In this document: in pieces, positions 3,895 to 23,220 of the stretch | Numbering within the stretch: position 1 is the first letter of the stretch | Layout of the letters: every line of letters starts with the position of its first letter | Source: Candidatus Moraniibacteriota bacterium | GTDB lineage: Bacteria; Patescibacteriota; Minisyncoccia; Moranbacterales; UBA1568 | Direction: 5' to 3' | Assembly (NCBI GenBank): GCA_037441965.1 | Contig: JBBIRD010000005.1 | Coordinates: 1 to 56,536, forward strand | DNA length: 56,536 nucleotides | Made by a program: the position numbers and the translations under genes | The notes under the pieces: generated by a model | Told to the model about the DNA's origin: nothing | What the model saw: the letters and a program-made list of their open reading frames with translations, nothing else | The model's database searches: none

Positions 3895-5781
3895 CTACAT
3901 CTTTTCAGGAACTCGTATATTCAGCAGAGCAAGACCATTTTTTATGACATTTGCCGTTGAACGACTCAACATAATTCTTGATATTCTTAAAGTATCATCT
4001 CCAGTCTTCAATATTGATACATCGTTATAAAAACTATTGAATAGTAAAGCCAATTCCTCAAGGTAAGTACAAATATCGTGTGGCGAATCAGTTTTCTGTG
4101 CTTTGGCAATAATTTGAGGAAATTCCATAAGTTTTTTCGCCAACGAAAACTCATTTTTCGTTTCAAAACAAATATTACTCTCATCTAAAACAATATCTGA
4201 TTCACCTGGAAATGTCTCATCTATTTTCTTCAGTATCGATTGAATGCGTACATATGTGTACTGCAAATATGTTGCACTCCCACCCTCAAAATCAAGCATC
4301 TTATCCCAGTCGAAAGAAATATTTTTTATTCGAGATTGATGAAGATCGTTATAGAGAATAGCACCTACTCCAATAATCTCAAAAATCTCATCTAATTTTT
4401 CTCCTATTAAAGAAGGATTCTTTTTAGAAAAAATTTCTCGTGACTTCTCTACAGACTGTTCTATTAAATCATTCAACTCAATCAGTGTCCCTCTTCTTGT
4501 TGACATCTTCTTGCCTTCCTTGGTTACCATACCAAAATCGATGTGTTTCGCCTTCACCGAATCCGGCAAATATCCAGCTCTTCTCGCAAGAGAAAAAAAC
4601 TGTTTGAAATTAAGACTTTGTTCACTACCAACTACATAAAGAATTGTTTCTGGATTGAAAATCTCATTACGAAACTTCAAAGTAGCCATATCACGAGATA
4701 TATAAAGAGTTGATCCGTCCTGTTTGCGTAACAGAAATGAAGGGAGATTGTCTTGTTGATCCACAACGACTGCTCCAGTCTCATCATCTATTCTACATAT
4801 ACCTTTACTCAAACAATCTTGAACCACTTTTTCTGCTTCCTTTATGAAAAAGCTTTCCCCTATATGCATATCGAAATTGATACCAAGACGCTCATACATT
4901 TTTTCAAAATCGATAACACTCCAATCTCTGAATCTTTTCCATAAGATCGTCAATTCAGGATCTCCATTTTCCAACTTAGCGAATAATACACGCGCTTCAT
5001 CTTCCATTTGAGGATTATCTTTGGCAAGATTATGAAACTTTACATACAGATTTTTCAATTCCTCTATCGGATTTTTTTCTATATCTTCTTCATTGCCCCA
5101 ATGTTTGTATGCAAAAAGTAATTTACCAAATTGAGTCCCCCAATCCCCAAGATGATTATCTCTGATGACAGAATAGCCAGTTTTCTCATAAAGATTAGCA
5201 AGCGCCTGACCAATAATTGTCGATCTAAGGTGACCAATCCCCATAGGTTTAGCGATGTTTGGAGATGAATAATCCACAACAACAACTTTTTTTGCGTTAA
5301 TATCACTCTCGCCATATTTGTCGCCCAATGTAGCAATACAAGAAAGTGTAGAAGCATATAATATGTTCTTCTTTGCTTCAACATTAACGAATGGACCAAC
5401 CGCAACAGCTTTGTCTATAAACTCCGTATGTTCTTCTCTATTGATACCATCCACAACTTTAGAAGAAAGAGTTTGTGGGCTTTCTTTAAGTTTCTTTGCT
5501 AATCCAAATGTCTCAATTGCAAAATCACCAGTAACATACGCTGGCGGAGATTGTAAATCAAATTCTTCATTAAAAATCCCCGGTGATTCGATCGATTTTT
5601 CTACAATACCACAAAGCTCTTTTTGAATTCTGAAAACAGGATATATTTCTTTCGAAATATATTTCCTTTCCATCATTTCACATTTCACTCTATCAAGAAC
5701 AGAGTAAACGGTTGTCATTACCTCTTGCTGATACTGATCAAAAATTGGCGTTTTCTGGTCATTTTTTTTCATAACTTTCAC
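3895..5781 (-). CDS. argS: arginine--tRNA ligase
   Basis: 628 aa; class I HIGH-type motif SSPNIAKPMGIGHLRSTIIG and KMSTRRG (KMSKS-type), with the typical ArgRS C-terminal anticodon-binding region. Confidence 0.95.
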   Translation of the reverse strand: MKVMKKNDQKTPIFDQYQQEVMTTVYSVLDRVKCEMMERKYISKEIYPVFRIQKELCGIVEKSIESPGIFNEEFDLQSPPAYVTGDFAIETFGLAKKLKESPQTLSSKVVDGINREEHTEFIDKAVAVGPFVNVEAKKNILYASTLSCIATLGDKYGESDINAKKVVVVDYSSPNIAKPMGIGHLRSTIIGQALANLYEKTGYSVIRDNHLGDWGTQFGKLLFAYKHWGNEEDIEKNPIEELKNLYVKFHNLAKDNPQMEDEARVLFAKLENGDPELTILWKRFRDWSVIDFEKMYERLGINFDMHIGESFFIKEAEKVVQDCLSKGICRIDDETGAVVVDQQDNLPSFLLRKQDGSTLYISRDMATLKFRNEIFNPETILYVVGSEQSLNFKQFFSLARRAGYLPDSVKAKHIDFGMVTKEGKKMSTRRGTLIELNDLIEQSVEKSREIFSKKNPSLIGEKLDEIFEIIGVGAILYNDLHQSRIKNISFDWDKMLDFEGGSATYLQYTYVRIQSILKKIDETFPGESDIVLDESNICFETKNEFSLAKKLMEFPQIIAKAQKTDSPHDICTYLEELALLFNSFYNDVSILKTGDDTLRISRIMLSRSTANVIKNGLALLNIRVPEKM

Positions 5782-5910
5782 TCATTCATTGCTTATTCTA
5801 CGATTGTGTAGTTTCAGAACTATTCATTGTAATACTATTCGCTTATTTTTATCTCCTAATGTTACTATCTTACAGGAAAAACAGAAAAAATCAACTTAGC
5901 ACAATAAAAA

Positions 5911-5937
5911 AGCATCCAACAAAATTGTTTGGATGCT
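5911..5937 (-). terminator. intrinsic terminator closing the accessory operon
   Basis: AGCATCCAA-(9 nt)-TTGGATGCT, 9-bp stem, followed on the minus strand by TTTTTTATT; lies 79 nt downstream of the last island ORF. Confidence 0.65.
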
Positions 5938-6015
5938 CTTTGTATAATTTTTTGAATTTTTCAATGTCTTTTTTTGTTGTCATTAAAATTATTAAAAGAA
6001 TAAGGATTAAGAGAT

Positions 6016-6315
6016 TTATTCAACCTCCAATTCCTCGTCTTCATAAGTCAGTTTAATCTTTTCATTGCCATGTATTTTGTGATGACAATCTTTGCAAAGT
6101 ATAGTTATATTTTCAACGCTTGTTCTGCCACCTTTTGAATAAAGCTCTTTGTGATGATAGTCTGGCTCGCCATAATCCCTGAATTTCTTGCCACAACCCC
6201 ACTGACCTTTCAATAAAACAGCAAAAGGAAGATTTTTTTTAAAAAAATCACAATAATAATCTAAATATTCCTCAATGTGGCTATTTATCATAATATTTAA
6301 CTTTCTACACCTCAT
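6016..6315 (-). CDS. 99-aa HNH-motif protein with an orphan Walker-A-like N-terminus (probable deletion chimera or remnant)
   Basis: N-terminal FAVLLKGQWGCGKK resembles a P-loop (KAP-like context EEYLDYY...). It runs straight into an HNH core DYHHKELYSKGG...NITILCKDCHHKIH, with no ATPase body in between. Confidence 0.5.
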   Translation of the reverse strand: MRCRKLNIMINSHIEEYLDYYCDFFKKNLPFAVLLKGQWGCGKKFRDYGEPDYHHKELYSKGGRTSVENITILCKDCHHKIHGNEKIKLTYEDEELEVE

Positions 6316-6757
6316 CTCGACCTTTCATCCCAGCAACCACGTGATCAAACACGCCCCTAACAGAGCTATCAATTCTTAATTTAGTATTTTTTGAGTGATA
6401 CCAAAAACAATTATATTTTTCATCAATTTCAAGTTGAATATCTTTCTTAATGCAGACATGATTTCCCATGCCACCATTGTAACCAATGAAAAGATGCTCA
6501 TTTTGTTCAATCAGCTTTTCTGTTGCATCGTATGATTCTTTATCTATGGAAACATTGGTTTCATGTGTAACTAAATTGTCTTCATCCTTTAATAAATACA
6601 TAAGAATTCCTCCTTCATTACCCATAGCCCCCATGGGAGAAACTTCACAATAAATCACTTTATCGAAATCAATGGAATTCAAATTTTCAGCAGTAATGAT
6701 TATACTCCCTTCAAAAACTATCGGCTTTTCCAATACTCCTCTATAAACTATTGTCAT
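6305..6757 (-). CDS. hypothetical protein (150 aa), island gene
   Basis: ORF in operon context; two G-x-MGN motifs (PMGAMGNEGG, YNGGMGNHVC); no family recognised. Confidence 0.55.
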   Translation of the reverse strand: MTIVYRGVLEKPIVFEGSIIITAENLNSIDFDKVIYCEVSPMGAMGNEGGILMYLLKDEDNLVTHETNVSIDKESYDATEKLIEQNEHLFIGYNGGMGNHVCIKKDIQLEIDEKYNCFWYHSKNTKLRIDSSVRGVFDHVVAGMKGRDEV

Positions 6758-6777
6758 AAAATTATTTAATTTGAGAT

Positions 6778-7182
6778 TTATTCCAGCACATACTTCAAAA
6801 GTTCATTTGTGGCATATTTACTTAATACTGGATAACTATAGCCACCCTTAATACTCCAGGACTCCGTATTTTCTATATCTTCTAAGAATTTTTTTAACAA
6901 TTCATCATGATCATACAAATACCAACAATTATTTTTTCTATCACAAAAACAAATTTTAATATCCTTGCCAATATATTTTTTTTCAAATGTCATTCTCCCT
7001 TTTAATTGAACTTTCATATGATTTGATCCATCAAAACTAATGGCTATAAAGTCTGCACCCATCCAATCGTCAGAAAGCTTAACCGTTGTAAATCCATAAT
7101 CAGCAAAAATAGAAGAAACTTTTTGAAAATTATAAATCTCTTGCTGTCTTGCATTTAAGTTTTCATATTTTATCTTTTGCAT
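6778..7182 (-). CDS. hypothetical protein (134 aa), possible minimal PD-(D/E)xK-fold protein
   Basis: WMGADFIAISFDGSNHMKVQLKGR has a D...(Q)xK arrangement on predicted consecutive strands; assignment is tentative. Confidence 0.5.
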   Translation of the reverse strand: MQKIKYENLNARQQEIYNFQKVSSIFADYGFTTVKLSDDWMGADFIAISFDGSNHMKVQLKGRMTFEKKYIGKDIKICFCDRKNNCWYLYDHDELLKKFLEDIENTESWSIKGGYSYPVLSKYATNELLKYVLE

Positions 7183-7205
7183 ATATTTTGGATTTAAACA
7201 AAATC

Positions 7206-7961
7206 TTAATTCTTTATTTTTTCAGTAACAGAATTTATATAACTGCAATAATCACACTCGTGATTAGCTTCTGGTATTTTGTCACCATTCAAACATTTAT
7301 GAGCCTCAATAATTGTTTTCTCAACCCATGAATCGTTACCGGTATATGGAATCAAAGCAACATCAAATTCAAGTTTTTGATCAAATGCTTCACAATCTGC
7401 CTTTCCATTGCAATACACAAAATAACCAGCATCGGAAACCTTGTATCCATTTTGCCTTAATAGCCACTGATACACTTCCATCTGGCGTTTATATCCAATC
7501 TGCCAGTCCTTATTTAATTCAGTTATTTCTTCAACTTTTGAAGTTGATTTATAATCAACCACGATATATTCACCTTTTGAGTTTTGCCAAAGATCATCAA
7601 TAGCACCAAATACTAAGAAATTTGTAGACTCATGCAAATGTTGAATACCCGTAAAATTATGCCTCCATTTATCAAGATCATCATGTGCAACTGGCGTAGC
7701 ATCAACTCCATATTTTTCAATTAATGGGTGCCTTGTTCCGTTATATCGATGCGTATCAAATTCTTGCTTTAACAATGCATCAACTGCAGAATTTAATGCG
7801 AAAGGAAATCCGGGCGGTCTACCAACCCCAAGTTTCCTGTCCAAATAAAAACACCTTGGACACTGTAAAAATAAATCAATTTTTGATCTTGAAAGTTTAA
7901 ATGGCTCTGAAGAGTTTTCATAAAGCGCCTTTGTTCGCTGTGCGTTATAGTACTCTGACAT
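7206..7961 (-). CDS. PD-(D/E)XK nuclease, Cas4/RecB-like, with Cys cluster
   Basis: N-terminal LFLQCPRCFYL; motif II/III GAIDDL...YIVVDYKST; QMEVYQWLL (QxxxY); C-terminal HKC-x12-CDYC, a Cas4/AddB-like four-Cys arrangement. Confidence 0.75.
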   Translation of the reverse strand: MSEYYNAQRTKALYENSSEPFKLSRSKIDLFLQCPRCFYLDRKLGVGRPPGFPFALNSAVDALLKQEFDTHRYNGTRHPLIEKYGVDATPVAHDDLDKWRHNFTGIQHLHESTNFLVFGAIDDLWQNSKGEYIVVDYKSTSKVEEITELNKDWQIGYKRQMEVYQWLLRQNGYKVSDAGYFVYCNGKADCEAFDQKLEFDVALIPYTGNDSWVEKTIIEAHKCLNGDKIPEANHECDYCSYINSVTEKIKN

Positions 7962-7975
7962 ATCATTAAAAAATA

Positions 7976-9013
7976 TTAATTCAAATAAAAATCAAGTGGC
8001 TCTACGATAAAATCATTTCCTTTTTTAGTTATAACTCCAGCAGAAACCAAACCATAATTTTTTTTATTAACCATTTTACTTAAAACATTCTCTATGGAGT
8101 ATTTTTCTTTATCAATAAGTAACTTTTTTAATGAAAGCGCCCACAATGCCGTAGCTGAAATAAAGAATAAATCATGCTCAACTAAATTTTTATAGAATAT
8201 ATCAGACTGGTTTCCAATTTTAGAAGTACAATTAATATGACTGCTGAACAATAAATCACTTTCTCTACCATCTATAATTAAAACTGGATAACTTTTTATA
8301 TTAGACAATCCAACCTCTTGTAAATTTTTTAATATCTCTTCTTTATAGCTTATCATCTGAGAAACATATCTACCTTCTTGCATCATTTTTACAAAACTAA
8401 TTTTTGTCTCAGCGGCAATTAAAAACTCATCGTTAGAAAAAAGACAAATATCTAATCTTCCACCCCTGTCCCTGCTTTGTATGATCATTTTTATTTCTAA
8501 TCCCAACCTACTTTCGGCATAAAGAGATAAAAATTTTATAAGTGAAGCACCCCAGACTGCAATATTCCTAGTCTCATCAACACTTGCAAATTCTTCAAAA
8601 TTTTTATAATTAGTATCGGTAGAAATATTTGCCGAGTATGGAATTTCAACAAGTTCATTATTAAAATAGTTTTCAACTAGCTCTTTATTTTTATCTGATA
8701 TGACATTTTCAAAATCACTGCACCCTTCTTTTAGATTAAAATCATCTTCAATTGAAATTAAATTTCCTGGGCAGTTCAATAAGCAAAATAAACATTTTAT
8801 ACAATGATTCCTATTAATATTTATTTTATCATTATTGATTTGTATGCAATTTATATTATGAACCACTGAAAAATACTGATCCCCCTTACTCTTGTTTAAC
8901 AAAAAATCTTTTAAATATCCCCACTTTTTATTAAAAATTGATACACAGGGTGGTAAATTATTTTTTTTATTATAAAGACAATTCATAGACATTTTTCTTA
9001 ATGCTTTTATCAA
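7976..9013 (-). CDS. putative nuclease: ferredoxin-type 4Fe-4S Cys motif plus PD-ExK-like C-terminal half
   Basis: HCIKCLFCLLNCPG = CX2CX2CX3CP; later GRLDICLFSNDEFLIAAETKISF = D...ExK. Alternative starts at 8992 or 8986 (M8/M10). Overlaps the upstream gene. Confidence 0.6.
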   Translation of the reverse strand: MIKALRKMSMNCLYNKKNNLPPCVSIFNKKWGYLKDFLLNKSKGDQYFSVVHNINCIQINNDKININRNHCIKCLFCLLNCPGNLISIEDDFNLKEGCSDFENVISDKNKELVENYFNNELVEIPYSANISTDTNYKNFEEFASVDETRNIAVWGASLIKFLSLYAESRLGLEIKMIIQSRDRGGRLDICLFSNDEFLIAAETKISFVKMMQEGRYVSQMISYKEEILKNLQEVGLSNIKSYPVLIIDGRESDLLFSSHINCTSKIGNQSDIFYKNLVEHDLFFISATALWALSLKKLLIDKEKYSIENVLSKMVNKKNYGLVSAGVITKKGNDFIVEPLDFYLN

Positions 9014-10169
9014 TTAGATTAACAAGATCTTCAGGCGCCCCGTAATTCAAAATTCCAACATTTAATCCAGTTACTGGCTTTAATAAATTATCGCCAATCA
9101 ATTCATATGGAATACCGGCTGCAAAAGCTATCTCCAACTCTACTGTCATTATCGAATTAAAATCATCTCTATTTATAACAAAATATTCTTCATATTTTTT
9201 CATCTCCTCAATTAATTTATCGAAGTTCAACAAAAAGTTATTTTCAAAACAAAAATTTAAAGTGTAAAGAATTGCATACCTTCTATTTCTTATAATATGA
9301 GCACATTCCATGGTTTTTTGACGAGAACTTTTTTGACCATTTTCCCTTAGCGCCTTTATATCTTTAGTTAAATTTTTATAATCAAATGGCTTTCTTGTTG
9401 AAAAATTACCTGAAAATATTTTTGGTATATTAATTTTTGCATATTTCTGTTCATTTCTTGTTGAATTATTAGTAATATAAGAATCTGTATCAAGATGTGA
9501 ACTATTGAAATTAACTGATTCTTTTAATGATTCTGGGACAATAAAACCCACAGTAGAAAACCAAGCAAGGATACACGATTTCGTTCTCGTGTTTGAATCA
9601 TTTTGAGATCCGCTTGATATTAATATCTGTTCGCTATTGGCAATAACAAACTCCCTAGGCGTTGGATATCCAACAGATATTTTTTTTGCATTAAAGCTGT
9701 CATTGCACTTATTTATTTGAAAAAGCATTCCAACCGCCAAACCATAATTGCACACAGCCTCTCTAGCTATTTCAAGCCACTCATTAGATTCAAATTCTGA
9801 ATTAGCAAATTTAATACCAAACTCAGTAACTCTAAATTTACGCTCTTTTCTATCTATAAGCCCAAGAGCATCTAGTGAATTCATTGAGTTGCTTATCTCC
9901 TTTTTCTTAGTAGAGTCTTCTAGCACACCCCTTGTTAAATAACAGCCAGCTAGACTTAATGGATTTTGCAAAAAAGGACAGTACCTTATATTAAGATTTT
10001 TATCATTTTTTAATAATTTGCAAAAATGATGAATATTTTTCTCCCCACTATCAAATAAAAGATCACCCATTGTAAACTCATTTGTACCAAATTTAGAATA
10101 AGCCAATTTCAATAAATAATACAAGCATCTCAATCTTGCAGGTGGCGTTCTGTTTATCAAATAAGACAT
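8970..10169 (-). CDS. hypothetical protein (399 aa), possible DNA-recognition subunit
   Basis: Operon context, with overlaps at both ends. By memory only, it weakly resembles the N-terminal recognition region of AlwI/BstNBI-family Type IIS enzymes (NRTPPARL; LGLIDRKERKFRVTEFG). Confidence 0.55.
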   Translation of the reverse strand: MSYLINRTPPARLRCLYYLLKLAYSKFGTNEFTMGDLLFDSGEKNIHHFCKLLKNDKNLNIRYCPFLQNPLSLAGCYLTRGVLEDSTKKKEISNSMNSLDALGLIDRKERKFRVTEFGIKFANSEFESNEWLEIAREAVCNYGLAVGMLFQINKCNDSFNAKKISVGYPTPREFVIANSEQILISSGSQNDSNTRTKSCILAWFSTVGFIVPESLKESVNFNSSHLDTDSYITNNSTRNEQKYAKINIPKIFSGNFSTRKPFDYKNLTKDIKALRENGQKSSRQKTMECAHIIRNRRYAILYTLNFCFENNFLLNFDKLIEEMKKYEEYFVINRDDFNSIMTVELEIAFAAGIPYELIGDNLLKPVTGLNVGILNYGAPEDLVNLIDKSIKKNVYELSL

Positions 10170-10651
10170 ATATCAAAATAATTCTTATCTTTATTCAAGA
10201 TATCCCGAATAGAAAATAAGATGAATTTATTTTTTAGTATTTTATTTACTTCTTCAAATAAAAATTTAGTCTTCTCCTTTTCATCAACAAGAATACAACC
10301 GATTATACTTTTTGATGGGAAAACTTTTTTCATTTCACTAATAATAGTATCTAACTTGATTATTTCTTTATCTATCTTTGAATCATTCTTAATTGTTTTT
10401 ATAAGAAATAAATTATTTTTATAATAAAAAGCTATTTCAATCTTTGCGCTCCTGAAGCCATAACTAAATTTAGCATTTACAACTACTGGTACATTTAACA
10501 TCTCCTTAATTATTCCAGCAGAATAAATAATAAAATTATTTTTATTATTAAAATCCAATATTAAATAATCCCTATTAACTCCATTTGGGACATCTAGAAG
10601 AATGCTATCTATGTCAGCATTCATCATGATATTTGTTTTAAAATTATTCAT
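10157..10651 (-). CDS. hypothetical protein (164 aa), island gene
   Basis: ORF overlaps the methyltransferase stop by 8 nt and the next gene's start by 13 nt; no motif recognised; ends in TGA. Confidence 0.55.
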   Translation of the reverse strand: MNNFKTNIMMNADIDSILLDVPNGVNRDYLILDFNNKNNFIIYSAGIIKEMLNVPVVVNAKFSYGFRSAKIEIAFYYKNNLFLIKTIKNDSKIDKEIIKLDTIISEMKKVFPSKSIIGCILVDEKEKTKFLFEEVNKILKNKFILFSIRDILNKDKNYFDICLI

Positions 10652-11453
10652 TTTTTTTCAATTTCTTTTTTATTAACTCGAGATATTCATCATTTAGCTC
10701 ATAGACAACAGCCCTTCTTCCTAATTCAATAGCAACCTTAGCAGTTGTTCCAGTTCCTGCAAATGGATCCAATACCATATCCCCATGAAAACTAAACAAC
10801 CTTATTAACCTCTTTGGCAATTCTTCTGGAAATGGAGCTGGATGTTTTTCCGATTTTGCTTTAGCTGGTTGCATCTCCCAAATTGAGTTTATAGCCCATT
10901 CACTCCATTCCTTATGTGTTAATTTTGATTTTTCTTTAATTTCCTTACTAACTGGAAGTCTTTTTCCCTTTTTAGCAAAAACAGTGATCCATTCATATGG
11001 ATAAGTAGAAAACATATTTGTAGGAAATGGATAACTACCAAAAGAACTAAACCTAACAATTTTTCTCTTATCCCAAATAAATAAAGCAAATTGATACATT
11101 TCCTTCGTACTTTCCATGAATTTTTCTATATCCCCTAAAACTAATTTAGTTTCCCTCCTATCAAATCTAGCGGCTTTACCAGTAAGTAAGAACGGCATTA
11201 TATTTATACAAATCTTTCCATCTGGAGCTAAGACTCTTATACATTCACTCCAAACCTTATTCAACTCATCAATATAGTGTTCATAAGATGAACTTCCTTT
11301 TCCAATTTGCTTTCCATTATTATAATCTTTCAATGTCCAATATGGTGGACTTGTTATTATAAGATTAACACTGCCATCAGGAAGTTCTGACATTTTTTTT
11401 GCATCTTTTATATATATATCAGTTTCGCCTACTTTATAATGATTTTTTTTCAT
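10644..11453 (-). CDS. DNA methyltransferase, N4-C/N6-A family, beta-type motif order
   Basis: Motif IV IITSPPYW near the N-terminus and motif I LDPFAGTGTT near the C-terminus (N6_N4_Mtase-type architecture). Confidence 0.9.
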   Translation of the reverse strand: MKKNHYKVGETDIYIKDAKKMSELPDGSVNLIITSPPYWTLKDYNNGKQIGKGSSSYEHYIDELNKVWSECIRVLAPDGKICINIMPFLLTGKAARFDRRETKLVLGDIEKFMESTKEMYQFALFIWDKRKIVRFSSFGSYPFPTNMFSTYPYEWITVFAKKGKRLPVSKEIKEKSKLTHKEWSEWAINSIWEMQPAKAKSEKHPAPFPEELPKRLIRLFSFHGDMVLDPFAGTGTTAKVAIELGRRAVVYELNDEYLELIKKKLKKNE

Positions 11454-11455
11454 CG

Positions 11456-12529
11456 TTATTTATTCCAAATAATTATTTGTTCTTTCCTATCTGTACTGTT
11501 TAATTTATCAAAAACCTGCGAACTACTTCCAGCGTAACTTCTCTCAATAACTTTGCATTTTTCAAAAGGAGAAATTTCTTTAAAAAATTCTGCACCATTT
11601 ACCACCTTTCCATGAATTTTTTTGTCACCAACCACAAAAATTATAGTTGATCCCTTCTTGCAAACCTTATAAAGCTCTTTCAAAACTATTCTCATATCTT
11701 CCTTATAGGTACTGATATTTTGAATAAGTGTTTGCTTAATTTCAAGCCTATCAGATCTTAATATGGAGTATATTATTTTTCCATAATAAGAAGTATAATC
11801 TAAACAATCAAAGTATGGTGGGCTAGTAAATACATAATCAACACTATTTGGTTTAATTTTTTTTGATAATTTTCGCGAATCATACAAGAATATTTTGCTC
11901 CCATTCTCATCCGTTGGATGAAAATGTTTCTTCACTTTCTGCAAAAATTTTTCATAAAAATCAACTCTCTGCTTTGGGTTCATGTCCTTTCCAACAGAAC
12001 TTGAAGTCCATTTATACCAATTACAAGCACGTGCCGTTAGTGCTATTGCTCCATAAAAAGAAGCTCTCAGATAGTCAGACATTTCATCTGAAAATGCAGA
12101 AATTCTCATGATTTCTTCAGAAGTTGAACTATGAAAATGCTTTGATGCCTCCAATGGCATTTTATTCACTTTTTTTATTAACTTAGCTTTTTCAATTATC
12201 CTTTTAGCCTCTTCAATTACATCATCCTTTTTGGCTAAATATATTTTTCCTCTTGCAATATCTATTGCCAAAGGATTCAAATCAACTCCAATAGCCTTTA
12301 GCCCATACTTTTGAGCCTCATAAACTATAGTTCCTGATCCACAAAAAGGATCGAGTAATACGCTTTTCTTTGGAATTTGTTTTATTACTTGTTCTGCATC
12401 AATAGCTGATATTTTTCCCCTATACGGATATATCCCATGTATTGAATTTGGGTTATTAACGTTTTTTAACAATTTAAATTTTAAAGTATTTGTTTTTTTA
12501 TTCATATATAAAAATAGGCTTGGTGTCAT
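11456..12529 (-). CDS. DNA methyltransferase, N4-C/N6-A family, motif I before motif IV
   Basis: LDPFCGSGT (AdoMet motif I) near residue 60 and FTSPPYFD (motif IV) near residue 235. Confidence 0.85.
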   Translation of the reverse strand: MTPSLFLYMNKKTNTLKFKLLKNVNNPNSIHGIYPYRGKISAIDAEQVIKQIPKKSVLLDPFCGSGTIVYEAQKYGLKAIGVDLNPLAIDIARGKIYLAKKDDVIEEAKRIIEKAKLIKKVNKMPLEASKHFHSSTSEEIMRISAFSDEMSDYLRASFYGAIALTARACNWYKWTSSSVGKDMNPKQRVDFYEKFLQKVKKHFHPTDENGSKIFLYDSRKLSKKIKPNSVDYVFTSPPYFDCLDYTSYYGKIIYSILRSDRLEIKQTLIQNISTYKEDMRIVLKELYKVCKKGSTIIFVVGDKKIHGKVVNGAEFFKEISPFEKCKVIERSYAGSSSQVFDKLNSTDRKEQIIIWNK

Positions 12530-12690
12530 TTTTAAATTAAAGGATTTTTACATCAAACCATCACCTTACTAATTAGGCGTTTTTTGGCTTATTGTAAAGT
12601 TTTGTACACCCTAATATTATCATTAAGTCAACAAAAACTCAAGGATTTGACTAAATTGCCTATGCGACAGTAGATATAGCCAATTTCAGA

Positions 12691-13020
12691 CTACTCAACC
12701 ATCAGCAATAAAGACAAAGAATCTCTAACTTTATCATTATTACCACCCAAACTCCACTGTTTGACTTGATCAAGCGGACAATAACTCTTATAGTCATAAA
12801 TCGTAAATATCATATCCCTCTTGCCACCAATCAAGAATGCTCGTTCAGCTCTCATTTCTCCATCAACCGAATGTCATATTCCCTCTTTAGTACAATCGTT
12901 CGGTTCACCAAACAACATCTTCAATTCTTCGAAACTTGCATGAACAGTGCCAATCCTACTTGATCCAATAGTAGTCTTGTGAGTCGCAAGTTTCAGTATT
13001 GACCTGTTAAGATCGGAAGC
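12691..13020 (-). pseudogene. decayed small ORF with an in-frame TGA and no ATG start
   Basis: Minus frame reads ...IGTVHASFEELKMLFGEPNDCTKEGI-TGA-HSVDGEMRAERAFLIGGKRDMIFTIYDYKSYCPLDQVKQWSLGGNNDKV...; the in-frame TGA is at 12874-12876; the frame is bounded by TAG at 13021-13023 and stops at 12691-12693. Confidence 0.4.
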
Positions 13021-13172
13021 CTAATTATTTTTAAGAGAACAGCCGGAGAGGTACTCAAGCCCTAGACTTTTTCCCTCTCACAATTAGCCGAATAAACGGC
13101 TGCGGTTGCTGTCCGAAACCAAGCGTATGCCACAGGTGAACTCACAACACCGACATTCTTCAGCTCAAAAAT

Positions 13173-13202
13173 AAAAGCACCCATTCATTATAGGTGCTTT
13201 TT
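13173..13202 (-). terminator. intrinsic terminator after rpsI (bidirectional shape)
   Basis: AAAAGCACC-(11 nt)-GGTGCTTTT, followed on the minus strand by TTTTATTTTTG. Confidence 0.7.
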
Positions 13203-13244
13203 CACTTTTATAAGCCTTTTTTGAAGGTCGGCGGAGGCGTAATT

Positions 13245-13763
13245 CTAGCGCTTCGCCCATTGTGGTGAACGACGAGCTTTCTTCAATCCTGGTTTTTTGC
13301 GTTCCACTGCACGAGCATCACGAGTAAGCATTCCTGCTGATTTAAGCACGGCACGAAGAAGTGCATCATGCTTTATGAGTGAACGAGCGATACCGAGTTT
13401 GATGGCATCTGCTTGACCGTGGAGACCTCCACCACGAACGATGATAGATATTGCAAAATTTGATTCTAGTCCAACAAGTTTGAGCGGGGAAAGTGCTATC
13501 AATTCGAGAGATTCCGTACCAAAATATTCACGAATAGCCTTCTTATTTACTAAAACATCTTTACTCTCTGTTTCTTTACTTGGATACAGACGCACCTGAG
13601 CAATAGCTGTTTTACGACGCCCTACAGCATAAACATATTCTTTTGAAGCGCTTTTAACAAGAGGGGTCTTAGGAGATTTTGAAACCTTTTTCACAACTGG
13701 TTTCTTCACCTCTTTTTTTACCGCTTTCACTTCTTCTTTTTTCGTTGTTACTTTCGTTGCCAT
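13245..13763 (-). CDS. rpsI: 30S ribosomal protein S9 with a Lys-rich N-terminal extension
   Basis: GGGLHGQADAIKLGIARSL ... KKARRSPQWAKR C-terminus; about 40 extra K/V-rich residues at the N-terminus. Confidence 0.95.
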   Translation of the reverse strand: MATKVTTKKEEVKAVKKEVKKPVVKKVSKSPKTPLVKSASKEYVYAVGRRKTAIAQVRLYPSKETESKDVLVNKKAIREYFGTESLELIALSPLKLVGLESNFAISIIVRGGGLHGQADAIKLGIARSLIKHDALLRAVLKSAGMLTRDARAVERKKPGLKKARRSPQWAKR

Positions 13764-20660: not shown

Positions 20661-20909
20661 CTTTCTCCTCGCGCCCTTCTCCTCCCCTAAAAGAGAGAAA
20701 TAAAAAAACATTTCTAAAAAAGAAATGATTTTAATCTGTGTAGCCCTAAGGGGAGTCCTTTTTGCTCCGACAAAAAGCCTGGGCGCTACACACAGAAAGC
20801 TTCATTCATTCGCTTTCTTCTCGCGCCCTTCTCCTCCCCTAAAAGAGAGAAATAAAAAAACATTTCTAAAAAAGAAATGATTTTAATCTGTGTAGCCCTA
20901 AGGGGAGTC
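20661..20909. repeat. two-copy 97-nt direct repeat (20661-20757 and 20813-20909, offset 152 nt, 1 mismatch)
   Basis: 89 nt are identical (20669-20757 = 20821-20909). Each copy contains a CATTTCT-aaaaa-AGAAATG hairpin and the last 17 nt of tRNA-Glu. Confidence 0.9.
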
Positions 20910-20964
20910 GAACCCCTCTTACCAGGATGAGAACCTGATGTCCTAGCCGATAGACGATAGGGCC
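20893..20964 (-). tRNA. tRNA-Glu (anticodon CUC), no encoded CCA
   Basis: Cloverleaf drawn by hand: GGCCCTA/TAGGGCT acceptor (G1-U72), GTCT..GGAC D-arm, TCAGG-TTCTCAT-CCTGG anticodon arm, AGGGG-TTCGACT-CCCCT T-arm. Confidence 0.85.
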
Positions 20965-20984
20965 TTAGAAAAACTATTGTACAC

Positions 20985-22352
20985 TTATTTCCACCATTTT
21001 AGCAACCCTTGTATCTTTTCCATTATTTTTCCCATTGCTTCTTCTGAAGCCATAATCATCGGATTCATAAAAGGCCACGGGGTCATACTTGGATGCGAAA
21101 TGTAATTAAACTTCATCAATGATAAAATACTCAATCTAAGTCCAATAACAAAACTTGCAAGTTCTGCTGATGCTATAACACCCGTACCGAAAGCTTCATA
21201 GCCTACCAAACGCATCTTGGGTCCCGCAAAAATAAGTTTCACTTGTAAATCTTTTGCTCTTATAAGATCTTTATACACATCAGTTGTAGAAGCTGTTCCT
21301 GTTACAACCCATCGAAATTTTTTTCTTGCTTCTGTTTCTGTAAGTCCAACGCCAGCATATTCTCTACCAAGTGTTTGAAAAGCAAACGCTCTCGTGGATC
21401 CATTATAAGCAATAGGAAAACCAGCAATTTGAAAACCAACAATCTTTGCTTGTTGAATAGCACTACTCGCCAGCGCGCTCGGTTCATAATCCCCTGTTAC
21501 TGCAGACAATGGAATAGCACAATCACCACAGGCATAAATATGAGGAATGTTTGTTCTCATTCTTTTATCAACTACGATGCCTCGTTTTGTTGATTCTATA
21601 TCTGTTCCTGCAATAATATCCAAATTCGGTTTTACTCCGACCGCTATAATAACGATGTCTGCAAAAAGACTTTTGTCTTCATTATTGTTTCTTATTACAA
21701 CTTCTTTCTTCCCTACTACATCTTCTTTAATCTCTATAACACTATATCCAAAAAAAGTCGCAACATTGTTCTTATGCAAAAGTCCTACGATTTTTTCCGC
21801 AAATTCTTTATCAGCAATCGCCGAAGAGAGAGATGATTGATATTCTACTAGATTTACATCAAGACCACACTTTTTAAGTGCTCCGGCCATTTCTATTCCG
21901 ATCACTCCTGCGCCAACAACAACAGCACTCTTTGCAGTAGTAATATATTTTTGTATATTCTCTGTATCTTTACTTGTACGCACAGTAAAAATATGTGCGC
22001 CATCAATACCTGGGATTGTTAATTTCACAGGAGAGGATCCTGTAGCAATCACAAGTTCGTCATAGAGAAAAATATTTCCTTTATCCGTATGAACTTCTTG
22101 TGTGTCTGTATTTATTTTCACTGCTTTCTCGTGTATCACTTTCACACCATAATCACTTGCCATACTATCGGGCTGGATCGCATCAGCAAGATGTGCCTCA
22201 TTTGTCAGAATATATGGAGTAGTACAACGACAATAAATATCAGACTCATCTGCCAAAGCAATGGCTTCAAATGCTCCTTTTCGTAATTGGGAAGCAACGA
22301 TACCACTAAACATTCCTGCTCCACCACAACCTATAGAAACTATTTTTTTCAT
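20985..22352 (-). CDS. FAD-dependent pyridine nucleotide-disulfide oxidoreductase (NADH oxidase/CoA-disulfide reductase-like)
   Basis: IVSIGCGGAGMF (FAD), VVVGAGVIGIEMAG (NAD), ACGDCA; single-Cys region YCRCTTPY. Confidence 0.8.
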   Translation of the reverse strand: MKKIVSIGCGGAGMFSGIVASQLRKGAFEAIALADESDIYCRCTTPYILTNEAHLADAIQPDSMASDYGVKVIHEKAVKINTDTQEVHTDKGNIFLYDELVIATGSSPVKLTIPGIDGAHIFTVRTSKDTENIQKYITTAKSAVVVGAGVIGIEMAGALKKCGLDVNLVEYQSSLSSAIADKEFAEKIVGLLHKNNVATFFGYSVIEIKEDVVGKKEVVIRNNNEDKSLFADIVIIAVGVKPNLDIIAGTDIESTKRGIVVDKRMRTNIPHIYACGDCAIPLSAVTGDYEPSALASSAIQQAKIVGFQIAGFPIAYNGSTRAFAFQTLGREYAGVGLTETEARKKFRWVVTGTASTTDVYKDLIRAKDLQVKLIFAGPKMRLVGYEAFGTGVIASAELASFVIGLRLSILSLMKFNYISHPSMTPWPFMNPMIMASEEAMGKIMEKIQGLLKWWK

Positions 22353-22385
22353 TTTTGTTTATATACAAAGAGAAATTAATATAAG

Positions 22386-22456
22386 CAGGGGTGGTAGGAA
22401 TCGAACCCACACAAACGGTTTTGGAGACCGTTGTACTACCATTATACGACACCCCC
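22386..22456 (-). tRNA. tRNA-Trp (anticodon CCA)
   Basis: GGGGGTG/CACCCCT acceptor, ACGGT-CTCCAAA-ACCGT anticodon arm, GTGGG-TTCGATT-CCTAC T-arm, discriminator G. Confidence 0.88.
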
Positions 22457-22563
22457 TTTTTTTTCTGCCTCCCATTTAATATACAATATATTCCCTCATA
22501 AAACAAAACCGCCATCCGCCAACAATGATCGGCGAAGGCGGAAAAGAGAGATTGAGTGAATAC

Positions 22564-22704
22564 CTATTTACTCTCATTGTGAGGTGAATTTTTCTTGCAA
22601 AAACGACAGTACTTCGAGAGTGCAAGCTTTTCTTTCACTTTTTTCTTGTTGCGCTTGGTGTAATGTGTGATACGACCACACAGAGAACACTTCAGTTTAA
22701 CCAT
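22564..22704 (-). CDS. rpmG: 50S ribosomal protein L33 (not in the ORF track)
   Basis: Minus-strand translation MVKLKCSLCGRITHYTKRNKKKVKEKLALSKYCRFCKKNSPHNESK* (46 aa, CxxC...CxxC zinc type). Confidence 0.9.
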   Translation of the reverse strand: MVKLKCSLCGRITHYTKRNKKKVKEKLALSKYCRFCKKNSPHNESK

Positions 22705-22796
22705 AGTATCTTTTATCTGTCCCATATTCCTGTCGATTACTAGATGTTTAATAAAGTTCTTCTACTCTACTAGAAAATATCGTATTCGTCAAACTG

Positions 22797-22869
22797 AGCC
22801 GTTGAGCAGGATTGAACTGCTGACCTCGTCATTACCAATGACGTGCTCTACCAACTGAGCTACAACGGC
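22797..22869 (-). tRNA. tRNA-Thr (anticodon GGU)
   Basis: GCCGTTG/CAACGGC acceptor, GCTC-AGTTGGTA-GAGC D-arm, CGTCA-TTGGTAA-TGACG, AGCAG-TTCAATC-CTGCT. Confidence 0.9.
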
Positions 22870-23047
22870 TTCAATACACAAAACACTTTGTTAGAGTATC
22901 AAGAAATATATGCTCTGGCAAGAGAATAATTCGCTGTATCAATTTTAATCTCACTCCTTTCTAAAACAAAAAGCCTCTTTTCAGAGGTTATCTCATTTGT
23001 ATAAATACACCATCGCAAAACTTTTCGGATTTCTGAGAGCCAAATTG

Positions 23048-23130
23048 TGGGCAGGGAGGGATTCGAACCCCCGAAGGCCGAAGCCGACAGATTTACAGTC
23101 TGTTGTAATAGACCACTCTACCACCTACCC
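23048..23130 (-). tRNA. tRNA-Tyr (anticodon GUA), long variable arm
   Basis: GGGTAGG/CCTGCCC acceptor, ACAGA-CTGTAAA-TCTGT, variable arm CGGCTTCGGCC, T-loop TTCGAAT. Confidence 0.88.
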
Positions 23131-23147
23131 ATTTATACTATCTTTTG

Positions 23148-23220
23148 AGCCACCTGTCAGACTTGAACTGACGACCCACGGTTTACAAAACCGTCGCTCT
23201 ACCAACTGAGCTAAGGTGGC
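23148..23220 (-). tRNA. tRNA-Thr (anticodon UGU)
   Basis: GCCACCT/AGGTGGC acceptor, ACGGT-TTTGTAA-ACCGT, GTCAG-TTCAAGT-CTGAC. Confidence 0.9.

Follow-up and report, generated by a model that had tools for sequence, protein, structure and literature searches.

The 56.5-kb stretch of Candidatus Moraniibacteriota DNA analyzed in this work (hereinafter the window) contains a minus-strand run of five genes, M1, M2, S, B, and N (Table 1). The last of these, N, is predicted to combine a ferredoxin-type iron-sulfur (Fe-S) module with a PD-(D/E)xK nuclease domain. The genes M2 and S overlap by 8 nt, S and B by 13 nt, and B and N by 17 nt. The mechanical ORF of N covers 7976..9013 and encodes 345 aa from a TTG at 9013. 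Because the homologs are approximately 336 aa long, with a start that corresponds to M10, the ATG at 8986 is the likely start; residue numbers for N (C12 through K204) are nevertheless those of the 345-aa version, counted from the TTG. The M1-M2-S-B-N order is seen in 22/22 loci of class A (the classes of relatives are described below) where the contig allows, and M1 opens the cassette in 19/22 of these loci, i.e., in all whose contig extends that far. The other ORFs neighboring it in the window (Cas4-like, 134-aa, 150-aa, and HNH) were considered as further members and excluded, as none of them accompanies the cassette in the 22 loci. The Cas4-like ORF, at 7206-7961 next to N, has Cys residues at both ends (C34xxC37 and a CDYC near the C terminus). 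A search for a controller (C) protein upstream of M1 found none within the window; small HTH genes adjoin the cassette in the loci L001, L002, and L004. Rfam models run against the whole window recovered five tRNAs only, leaving the 715-bp gap upstream of M1 without a match, and scanning the island for promoters and terminators showed no enrichment relative to shuffles.

Table 1. Genes of the five-gene cassette and predicted features of N, with their positions in the window
Feature	Position	Strand	Extent	Basis
M1, DNA methyltransferase	11456..12529	minus	357 aa	Pfam N6_N4_Mtase 6e-15, MethyltransfD12 3e-9; PADLOC MTase_II 1e-22
M2, beta-class DNA methyltransferase	10644..11453	minus	269 aa	Pfam N6_N4_Mtase 3.6e-47; PADLOC MTase_II 1.6e-67
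S, putative small subunit	10157..10651	minus	164 aa	ORF between M2 and B in 19 loci
B, predicted FokI-type DNA-recognition subunit	8970..10169	minus	399 aa	AF2 model, Foldseek, invariant Cys quartet
N, predicted nuclease subunit	7976..8986	minus	336 aa from ATG at 8986	
Predicted ferredoxin-type Fe-S module of N	8699..8986	minus	residues 10-105	translation, conservation, Fer4 profile matches, 1h98 alignment
Canonical CxxCxxCxxxCP motif of N	8768..8803	minus	C71-P82	CIKCLFCLLNCP, motif search
Predicted PD-(D/E)xK nuclease domain of N	7979..8596	minus	residues about 140-345	conservation, AF2, Foldseek, sub-threshold HSDR_N_2
Candidate catalytic residues of N	D188 8450-8452; E202 8408-8410; K204 8402-8404; also E147, E173	minus		

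Residues 70-83 of N read HCIKCLFCLLNCPG, of which residues 71-82, CIKCLFCLLNCP, form a ferredoxin-type CxxCxxCxxxCP motif; INCIQINNDKININ precedes it. Translating the window in all six frames yields this motif a single time, and CxxCxxCxxxC arises in just 23/200,000 shuffles of the N protein, suggesting that its presence in N is beyond chance. The original prediction had singled out this motif, and it is indeed kept in full, including the Pro, in 96-97 of the 97 homologs (the N family comprises about 97 clusters). The four Cys on which that prediction was based are real and conserved (C71 and C74 in 96/96 members, C77 in 97/97, and C81 in 96/97), but they are an incomplete set: C56 (96/96), C12 (86/90), C23 (90/91), and C98 (93/97) are likewise preserved. 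The idea had been staked on homologs retaining the Cys residues, and all eight are 93-100% conserved across the 97 members. They point to a full two-cluster-type module in place of the Fer4 "half-domain" that had been proposed, and the module is accordingly predicted from its residues to hold two iron-sulfur clusters. C56 together with C71/C74/C77 would provide the ligands of cluster I, and C12/C23/C81/C98 those of cluster II.

In profile searches, the N protein of the window reaches 17.8 bits with Fer4_7 (gathering threshold 27) and 17.3 bits with Fer4_6 (threshold 25), both below the cutoff. NCBIfam models return weak ferredoxin-like matches only, far under their cutoffs, and a single-sequence search against the PDB returns only marginal ferredoxin matches. 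Together with a pLDDT of only 70-81 across the module in the AF2 model and the dispersed placement of C12, C23, C81, and C98, which form no second CxxCxxCxxxCP, the subthreshold Fer4 scores of the window protein could be taken to mean that the Cys serve structural zinc or disulfides instead of Fe-S clusters and that the module merely mimics a ferredoxin. We regard this as very improbable in light of the family as a whole. Fer4_6 matches 55/97 members at E<=0.01 (best E 8.3e-7), and for some members (P0004, P0005, and P0010), the precomputed Pfam annotation already lists Fer4. Zinc-ribbon families, which had been named as the competing interpretation, were matched by none of the 97 members in the Pfam scan of this region, where only families of the Fer4 clan (PF00037/PF12837/PF12838) were found. 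The best match of the N family profile among solved structures is the Thermus 7Fe ferredoxin 1h98, with C56 of N aligned to the distal [4Fe-4S] ligand C20, in register, and C81-P to C49-P. The near-universal CxxCxxCxxxCP with its Pro and the loss of Cys among the relatives in blocks matching two 4-ligand sites (see below) also argue against the zinc or disulfide interpretation. We consider it likely, with good confidence, that N binds at least one [4Fe-4S] cluster.

The C-terminal part of N contains GRLDICLFSNDEFLIAAETKISF, in which D188 through K204 (8402-8452) form the arrangement D188...E202-x-K204. The D...ExK signature had been pointed out in the original prediction, and its three residues, along with E147 and E173, are invariant in 97/97 members of the N family; among 72 distant representatives, nearly all retain the same five. 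An AF2 model of N (pLDDT 87.8, pTM 0.88) shows an alpha-beta-beta-beta core with E147 on alpha1, E173 on beta1, D188 on beta2, and E202/K204 on beta3, so that the D, E, and K residues do fall on the elements of a PD-(D/E)xK core, as the prediction required. In the numbering of the model, which is offset by 8 residues, these elements are helix 139-154 (E147, at its start) and the strands 161-168 (E173), 177-185 (D188), and 189-196 (E202/K204). The Foldseek neighbors of this model are nearly all PD-(D/E)xK nucleases, but the matches are weak: the best PDB hit has an E of 0.03, none in the PDB reaches E<=0.001, and there is one viral structure match at E 5.4e-4. These neighbors include SduA, Nt.BspD6I (among the best, prob 0.96), Card1, NucS, XPF, RecE-like exonucleases, and Cas4. 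At the sequence level, the N protein of the window matches HSDR_N_2 with an E of 0.001 and 19.5 bits, below the gathering threshold of 25, and a few family members match HSDR_N or PDDEXK_4. Cys residues inside the nuclease domain are poorly kept in the 97-member family (C190 49%, C262 74%).

The partner genes place this nuclease in a restriction-modification (R-M) setting. B yields an AF2 model with a pLDDT of 90.3, and a Foldseek search of this model against the PDB recovers FokI 2fok_B with an E of 6.9e-6 and prob 1.00 over about 420 aligned columns. The matches to 2fok_B and 1fok_A span E 7e-6 to 3.5e-5, and no significant match in the PDB was found besides FokI. The recognition fold covers B in its entirety, N being a separate, overlapping gene, and a Cys quartet in B (C15/C50/C64/C76) is invariant in 60/60 sequences. 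M2, which is kept in the cassette, has the motif order SPPY followed by DPFAGTGT, whereas M1 shows the reverse order, motif I (DPFCGSGT) and then motif IV (SPPY). The SPPY in both suggests that their product is probably N4-methylcytosine. The linkage to two different methyltransferase genes is strict across classes despite changed gene order. The earlier suggestion of a restriction-like nuclease is supported in that N always sits with two DNA methyltransferases, but it needs to be revised in that N appears as a subunit of a five-gene system and not as a self-contained enzyme. Overall, N is very probably the cleavage subunit of an R-M system.

One might instead suppose that the cassette is methylation-linked but no classical R-M system, for example, with an N that targets RNA or functions in repair, or with a B that is a transcription factor. 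In keeping with this, the methyltransferases alone reach a curated family threshold, and the loci L016 and L021 carry a damaged M2 yet an intact N, a combination that should not be tolerated with a lethal restriction enzyme unless it reflects assembly errors. Nevertheless, the full-length structural match of B to FokI alone, the invariant PD-(D/E)xK site of N, and the strict two-methyltransferase linkage make such a role extremely unlikely. The genomic setting speaks against it as well: class A cassettes lie in unrelated flanks that are often defense islands, with pAgo, GmrSD, Shedu-like, and DUF1016 genes adjoining them. No PADLOC model recognizes N, B, or S, which places the cassette outside the catalogued defense systems. 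Although restriction enzymes rank among the most intensively studied proteins, no ferredoxin-domain restriction enzyme was found described in the full-text literature that could be searched.

At the position of S, an ORF of 145-178 aa is present in all 19 loci in which the interval from M2 to B is intact. In a comparison by hhalign, a broad S alignment is collinear with the N family over 124 columns (prob 24%, E 8e-4), which is suggestive but not proof of a relationship, and with class A sequences alone the prob falls to 1.4%. We interpret S as a fast-evolving protein that is probably related to the nuclease core of N but catalytically degenerate. However, its constant position and this collinearity could be cited for S being a second active catalytic subunit, comparable to the small subunits of BspD6I, BsrDI, and BtsI, with N and S each cutting one strand as a heterodimeric Type IIT enzyme. 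Moreover, class A versions of S have an acidic residue (RIE/RID) at the equivalent of D188 and, on the strand that follows, a conserved Lys, and class D loci code for two full-length N paralogs. Several observations make an active S improbable. Only R67 and K85 are conserved across the S family; classes B and C have Pro at the D188 equivalent, and there is no ExK; and the second N paralog of class D has itself degenerated, with RLE in place of RLD and a deletion of the ExK segment. Furthermore, S has no Pfam, PADLOC, or PDB nuclease match, and its profile retrieved nothing meaningful from the PDB.

The family is rare, being found in 16/185,579 species genomes, mostly of Bacteroidota, and is wholly unannotated. 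Relatives of N form classes that differ in the number of clusters predicted for the nuclease (two, one, or none). In class B, an upstream Cys and the CxxCxxC are kept, while C12, C23, C81, and C98 are lost together, a block loss of the kind that the two-cluster assignment predicts. An Fe-S module is found on the S homolog of this class in 7/7 loci where S is visible. The N proteins of class C, for which the metagenome scan was run with a class C-only alignment, are free of Cys but keep D-E-K and the same B, M1, and M2 partners. In class D, the two N paralogs flank B, the second having the degenerate core noted above. The Cys quartet of B varies in step with these changes: N with the Fe-S motif pairs with a CCCC quartet in 33/33 loci, and N without Cys pairs with a quartet replaced by S-F-D-F in 9/10 loci. 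The exception, L025, has a B that retains three or four of the quartet Cys though its N has none.

Such joint presence and absence of Cys sites over three subunits, combined with an N motif of the low-potential electron-transfer ferredoxin type, raises the prospect of a redox relay or switch. Here, the clusters of N, those of S in some classes, and a further metal site on the B quartet would be a coupled, redox-active set that controls when cleavage occurs, either in response to the redox or iron status of the cell or by charge transfer along the DNA, and would thus be more than structural. Yet the nine Cys-free loci with a replaced quartet belong to one clade, so the co-loss may amount to one or two events, and shared selection against Fe-S dependence would explain it without any functional coupling. 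L025 breaks the pattern, and the cassette encodes no oxidoreductase or electron donor. Gating by redox strikes us as unlikely, and we similarly consider it doubtful that a multisubunit Fe-S network (two clusters on N, one or two on S in some lineages, and the B quartet) serves as a relay or sensor gating restriction.

The reading that we favor, with a probability of about 0.6, is that N is the DNA-cutting subunit of a rare five-gene cassette encoding a split Type IIS/IIT-like R-M system, in which recognition and cutting reside on separate proteins and the clusters serve assembly or regulation, not catalysis. All steps of the mechanism outlined here are inferred from homology and context. M1-M2-S-B-N would be co-transcribed and would constitute a FokI-style Type IIS/IIT system in split form. 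B, as a stand-alone FokI-type recognition domain, would bind an asymmetric DNA site, and N would be recruited noncovalently and cut nearby through its PD-(D/E)xK site (E147, E173, D188, E202, and K204). S would act as a partner or adaptor and not as a second active site, and M1 and M2 would each methylate one strand of the site, thereby protecting the host DNA. The existence of Cys-free relatives with an intact D-E-K triad indicates that the clusters cannot belong to the catalytic chemistry. They may instead fold a module of N that docks it into the B/S complex, in which case the holoenzyme would be present only if Fe-S maturation and redox state permit. We advance this assembly or docking role of the module only tentatively; it is suggested only by the movement of the module between N and S and by the fact that N has no other extra domain.

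If confirmed, this arrangement would represent a new cofactor class for restriction-modification. The two-cluster, one-cluster, and cluster-free forms would offer a natural experiment on cluster function because the variants share the same partners. The occurrence of the FokI architecture as separate recognition and cleavage subunits would bear on the evolution of Type IIS enzymes and on modular nuclease engineering; if true, a modular Type IIS enzyme in which the subunits for recognition and cleavage can be separated would exist in nature. The module might also couple restriction to Fe-S maturation or to oxygen or iron status, which could in turn bear on the restraint of a toxic nuclease after horizontal transfer. 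Were the gating by an Fe-S network to be true, it would be the first redox-controlled restriction enzyme.

Among known systems, FokI itself (1fok/2fok) offers the closest parallel to B, which matches the three-subdomain recognition domain over about 420 columns. In both systems, cleavage falls to a distinct PD-(D/E)xK module (in N, a predicted one), and protection of an asymmetric site (in the cassette, a presumed one) would require two methyltransferase activities. However, FokI combines recognition and cleavage in one polypeptide and lacks an Fe-S module, and M.FokI is one fused protein, whereas the cassette has B, N, and S as separate genes along with two separate methyltransferases. Moreover, no sequence similarity between N and the FokI cleavage domain was detected, and FokI is absent among the best 50 structural neighbors of N. 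Type IIT enzymes for asymmetric sites are typically paired with two methyltransferases, one per strand (PMC4081073). BspD6I/BstNBI, BsrDI, and BtsI resemble the proposed system in being multisubunit systems for asymmetric sites with two methyltransferases (PMC4081073) and in their logic of a large and a small subunit. In these enzymes, however, the large subunit is responsible both for DNA recognition and for cutting one strand, and the small one is itself an active nuclease; in contrast, B has no nuclease domain, N has no recognition domain, and S is apparently catalytically degenerate. None of these enzymes is reported to carry Fe-S; a 2014 survey of Type II enzymes contains no mention of Fe-S, and iron is absent from its text (PMC4081073).

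The combination predicted for N, a PD-(D/E)xK nuclease with an iron-sulfur cluster, is shared with Cas4, AddB, Dna2, and Exo5, and for Cas4, a cluster has been reported to be non-essential for endonuclease activity (PMC8610317). In that group, four Cys on either side of the nuclease domain, one N-terminal and three C-terminal, staple it around a single cluster. In N, on the other hand, all eight conserved Cys lie at residues 12-98, upstream of the nuclease domain, as an independent module, in agreement with the original prediction that the pattern differs from that of AddB, Cas4, and Dna2. The 7Fe/8Fe ferredoxins, as exemplified by that of Thermus thermophilus (1h98), share with N the distal Cys, the CxxCxxC, and the C-P in register, but their first Cys motif is replaced in N by the dispersed C12, C23, and C98, and the module of N is fused to a nuclease instead of being a free electron carrier. 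Ferredoxin-like domains are also known from nonredox nucleic acid machines, namely, the N-terminal 2x[4Fe-4S] domain of ABCE1/RLI and subunit D of the archaeal RNA polymerase. As predicted for N, the cluster domain is there attached to a protein whose own chemistry is not redox, and a structural, assembly, or regulatory role has been proposed for it; the partner domains and the processes involved are unrelated to those of N.

Five genes of the window run in one direction, overlapping one another or separated by 2 nt, and the last encodes the predicted nuclease subunit N, which is numbered here on its 345-aa ORF. Because its homologs are ~336 aa long, with a first residue equivalent to M10, the probable start is the ATG at 8986, 17 nt inside the end of the upstream gene. 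The original prediction, of a CxxCxxCxxxCP motif fused to a D...ExK nuclease-like arrangement, was borne out at the residues named. A six-frame translation of the whole window contains the motif a single time, and 23 of 200,000 shuffled versions of the N protein contain it, indicating that the motif is real and no effect of composition.

Features of the window and of homologous loci (L numbers) discussed in the text
Feature	Sequence	Position	Strand	Description
M1	window	11456-12529	-	DNA methyltransferase
M2	window	10644-11453	-	DNA methyltransferase
S	window	10157-10651	-	small subunit
B	window	8970-10169	-	399-aa FokI-like protein
N ORF	window	7976-9013	-	345 aa from TTG
N residues 71-82	window	8768-8803	-	translation CIKCLFCLLNCP
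N D188 to K204	window	8402-8452	-	translation D188-ICLFSNDEFLIAA-E202-T-K204
Cas4-like ORF	window	7206-7961	-	251 aa, Cas4/RecB-family PD-(D/E)xK
99-aa ORF	window	6016-6315	-	P-loop and HNH segments
Low-GC island	window	~5800-12600		
Island border	window	3895-5781		arginyl-tRNA synthetase-like gene
Island border	window	13245-13763		ribosomal protein S9-like gene
Stretch upstream of M1	window	12530-13244		715 bp
Hairpin	window	13201-13173		strong, terminator-like
tRNA cluster	window	20892-23220		Glu, Trp, Thr, Tyr, Thr
Cassette neighbors	L001	9058-12869		Piwi-domain Argonaute (pAgo), GmrSD
Cassette neighbor	L004	8425-9666		Shedu-like SduA_C protein
Cassette neighbors	L005	4926-7478		DUF1016/YhcG nuclease, PIF1-like helicase
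Class D cassette	L026	326-3981		two N paralogs
Damaged M2	L016	4654-5496		MAG locus
Damaged M2	L021	5317-5907		MAG locus

Among the 5.8 billion clustered proteins searched, 96 clusters are relatives of N (37-94% identity), all of ~330 aa and nearly all unnamed, with a few labeled "ferredoxin" or "PreA subunit" by JGI. In a 97-sequence alignment, C56, C71, and C74 (96/96 each), C77 (97/97), C81 (96/97), C12 (86/90), C23 (90/91), and C98 (93/97) are conserved; thus, the four Cys first noticed are present and retained among homologs, but that count was incomplete, as the module has eight. E147, E173, R183, R186, D188, E202, and K204 are invariant (97/97). The family is rare, being found in 16 of 185,579 species-representative genomes, mostly of Bacteroidota (Prevotella, Bacteroidales, Flavobacterium, Odoribacter, and Muribaculum), with one match each in an Aenigmatarchaeota MAG and a Prochlorococcus SAG; the clustered-protein search also yielded a Marinobacterium entry.

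The AlphaFold2 model of N, built on the family alignment (mean pLDDT 87.8, pTM 0.88), has a pLDDT of 93-98 in the core and 70-81 in the predicted Fe-S region. Its residue numbering is offset by 8 from that of the ORF; E147 lies at the start of helix 139-154, E173 in strand 161-168, D188 in strand 177-185, and E202/K204 in strand 189-196. The predicted core thus has the alpha1-beta1-beta2(D)-beta3(ExK) layout that is canonical for PD-(D/E)xK folds, and the D, E, and K of the proposed active site fall on a restriction-endonuclease-like core. Foldseek recovered no close structural relative in the PDB at E<=0.001; the top weak neighbors are nearly all PD-(D/E)xK nucleases, including Shedu SduA, Nt.BspD6I (probability 0.96), Card1, NucS/EndoMS, XPF, LmuA, and McrC. 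Matches in a viral library comprise RecE-like exonucleases, Cas4, ERCC4, and a "restriction endonuclease," one of them at E 5.4e-4. The D-E-K triad is retained in nearly all distant representatives of N.

Upstream of this core, residues 61-112 of the window N match nine Fer4-clan Pfam models, with the best stretches mostly at 61-94 and scores of ~13-18 bits, all under the Pfam gathering thresholds. Across the family, Fer4_6 is matched by 55 of the 97 members (best E 8.3e-7), Fer4_2 by 42, and Fer4_7 by 41, and the Pfam matches of these 97 include neither a zinc ribbon nor another Cys-rich family, which speaks for the ferredoxin-type assignment over a zinc ribbon. The best match of the family profile among solved structures is the Thermus 7Fe ferredoxin 1h98 (E 0.001). 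Here, C56 aligns with the Cys that in ferredoxins completes, as distal ligand, the [4Fe-4S] cluster bound by CxxCxxC, and C81-P aligns with the Cys-Pro ligating the other cluster. This register predicts a cluster I with C56, C71, C74, and C77 as ligands and a cluster II with C81 together with C12, C23, and C98. The comparison of distant relatives provides a test independent of the 1h98 alignment. Searched exhaustively with an HMM, 1.84 billion representatives yielded 129 N-like proteins in four classes by N-terminal Cys: class A with eight, including the window N; class B with four, namely, an upstream Cys plus CxxCxxC, where C12, C23, C81, and C98 are absent together; class C with none; and class D with ~12. 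The loss in class B, as a block, of exactly the four residues of the putative cluster II matches the prediction of the two-cluster model.

The cassette M1-M2-S-B-N retains an identical gene order in all 22 homologous loci examined, as far as the contigs reach, in wholly different flanks; in unrelated genomes, these include other defense genes (table), and in L001 also an integrase. In the window, it lies within a stretch of 29% GC, against 33-37% in the flanks. Pfam and PADLOC identify M1 and M2 as N6/N4-type DNA methyltransferases; in M2, SPPY precedes FxGxG, as in the beta-class order, and in M1 FxGxG comes first. SPPY favors N4-cytosine methylation, and N4-methylcytosine is the product we infer as favored for both. 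No Pfam family was found for B, and FokI is the sole match of its AF2 model (pLDDT 90.3), over ~420 columns (E 6.9e-6, probability 1.00). The matched region is the DNA-recognition domain, leaving no room for a nuclease domain in B. S, always present in the cassette and fast-evolving, has no match in Pfam, NCBIfam, PADLOC, or a PDB profile search. In a broad alignment, R67 and K85 are its only conserved residues, and the equivalent of D188 is E/D in class A and Pro in classes B and C. S aligns with the N core over 124 collinear columns (hhalign E 8e-4, probability 24%), which is suggestive of homology, not proof. Taken with the sparse conservation, the varying D188 equivalent, and paralog decay, this alignment suggests that S is probably a reduced relative of N, likely without catalysis.

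The cassette shares the window's low-GC island with a Cas4-like gene, unknown ORFs of 134 and 150 aa, and an HNH remnant; the whole looks like a horizontally acquired defense island within a housekeeping region. None of these neighbors ever co-occurs with the cassette in the 22 loci, and we reject them as cassette members. The Cas4-like ORF (PDDEXK_1, 1e-15; Cas4 models, 1e-8 to 5e-11) begins 14 nt past the N stop and carries Cys close to each end, in C34xxC37 and in a CDYC on the C-terminal side; being unlinked to the cassette in all 22 other loci, it represents a separate "solo Cas4." In the 99-aa ORF, the first ~45 residues match a KAP-type P-loop/PADLOC PDC-S49 N terminus (E 1e-12), including the Walker A GxxGxGK, of proteins ~620 aa in full, and the last ~45 form an HNH nuclease motif (E 2e-9); it looks like a deletion remnant. 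The stretch upstream of M1 contains no ORF >65 aa, Rfam match, or controller (C) protein gene, and the terminator-like hairpin directly follows the S9-like gene; in L001, L002, and L004, by contrast, the cassette has small HTH genes next to it. The tRNA genes, interleaved with a 455-aa ORF in a run of short minus-strand ORFs, are an ordinary chromosomal context, indicating that the window is cellular, not phage.

Variant cassettes show that the predicted Fe-S module is not confined to N. Class B cassettes (L023, L027, L039, L042, L043, L048, and L050) hold all five gene families as well, but in other arrangements. Their S homolog (202-247 aa) matches the S profile in its C-terminal half (E 4e-9 and 6.5e-8), and the N-terminal half consists of a copy of the module, "PPC...LKD.L...C...CxxCxxCxxxCP," that matches the N profile (E 9e-8); hence, either subunit, S or N, can carry the module. 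In the class D cassette, two full-length N paralogs (417 and 406-416 aa, with 10-13 N-terminal Cys each) flank B. In the second paralog, the Fe-S motifs are retained, but the core is degenerate: RLD has become RLE, and the ExK segment has been deleted. This cassette may represent a heterodimeric version of the system that resembles its ancestral state. L016 and L021 have a split or truncated M2 gene, and L021 lacks S as well; B and N look intact, with D-E-K kept. Either assembly or frameshift errors or decaying cassettes are indicated. An intact N without full methylation would be unexpected for an active R-M system.

B has a widely spaced Cys quartet (C15, C50, C64, and C76), invariant in 60/60 sequences, which may provide the recognition subunit with a further metal or cluster site; no such site is known in FokI. 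Among loci with complete N and B, an N with the Fe-S motif pairs with an intact quartet in 33/33 cases. An N without Cys pairs with a quartet replaced by S-F-D-F in 9/10; in these loci, S too is nearly Cys-free (0-2 Cys, no CxxCxxC motif). The nine form one clade, so that the pattern could stem from a single evolutionary event or from two. In the divergent Cys-free locus L025, B keeps C-S-C-C. The predicted metal sites thus emerge from the sequences as a system-level trait across three subunits. The main rival explanation, a genuine redox relay or switch, would span these same subunits, N, S, and B; we regard it as unlikely, and the co-variation could reflect a shared selective pressure instead of physical coupling. 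That the system persists evolutionarily without any of these Cys shows that the predicted clusters are not catalytic.

We favor instead an assembly or docking role for the Fe-S module, with a probability of roughly 40%. In FokI, the cleavage domain is covalently tethered to the recognition domain; a split system would need a noncovalent tether, and the module is the sole extra domain on N. From the domains observed, their conservation, the linkage of the genes, and the fold of B, which is FokI-like, we infer a mechanism in which B would bind an asymmetric DNA site and N, docked through its Fe-S module and partnered by S, would be recruited noncovalently and cleave nearby. Holoenzyme formation would then be contingent on cluster insertion. 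M1 and M2 would each protect one strand, and Type IIT/IIS enzymes with asymmetric sites usually have one methyltransferase per strand (PMC4081073).

The cassette appears to resemble Type IIS/IIT R-M systems in operation but to belong to neither of the nearest families. FokI is a single chain, whereas recognition and cleavage here would lie on separate proteins, B and N. In BspD6I, BsrDI, and BtsI, the large subunit both recognizes and cuts and the small subunit is active, unlike the organization of the cassette. Full-text literature searches and a comprehensive Type II review (REBASE not included) turned up no Fe-S or ferredoxin domain in any restriction enzyme. Cas4, AddB, and Dna2 use four Cys to staple the nuclease domain itself; in contrast, and in line with the distinction originally drawn from these enzymes, the conserved Cys of N are all located N-terminal to the nuclease domain, within a ferredoxin-type module of their own. 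We rate the cassette as a putative R-M system with an unprecedented cofactor module and subunit organization.
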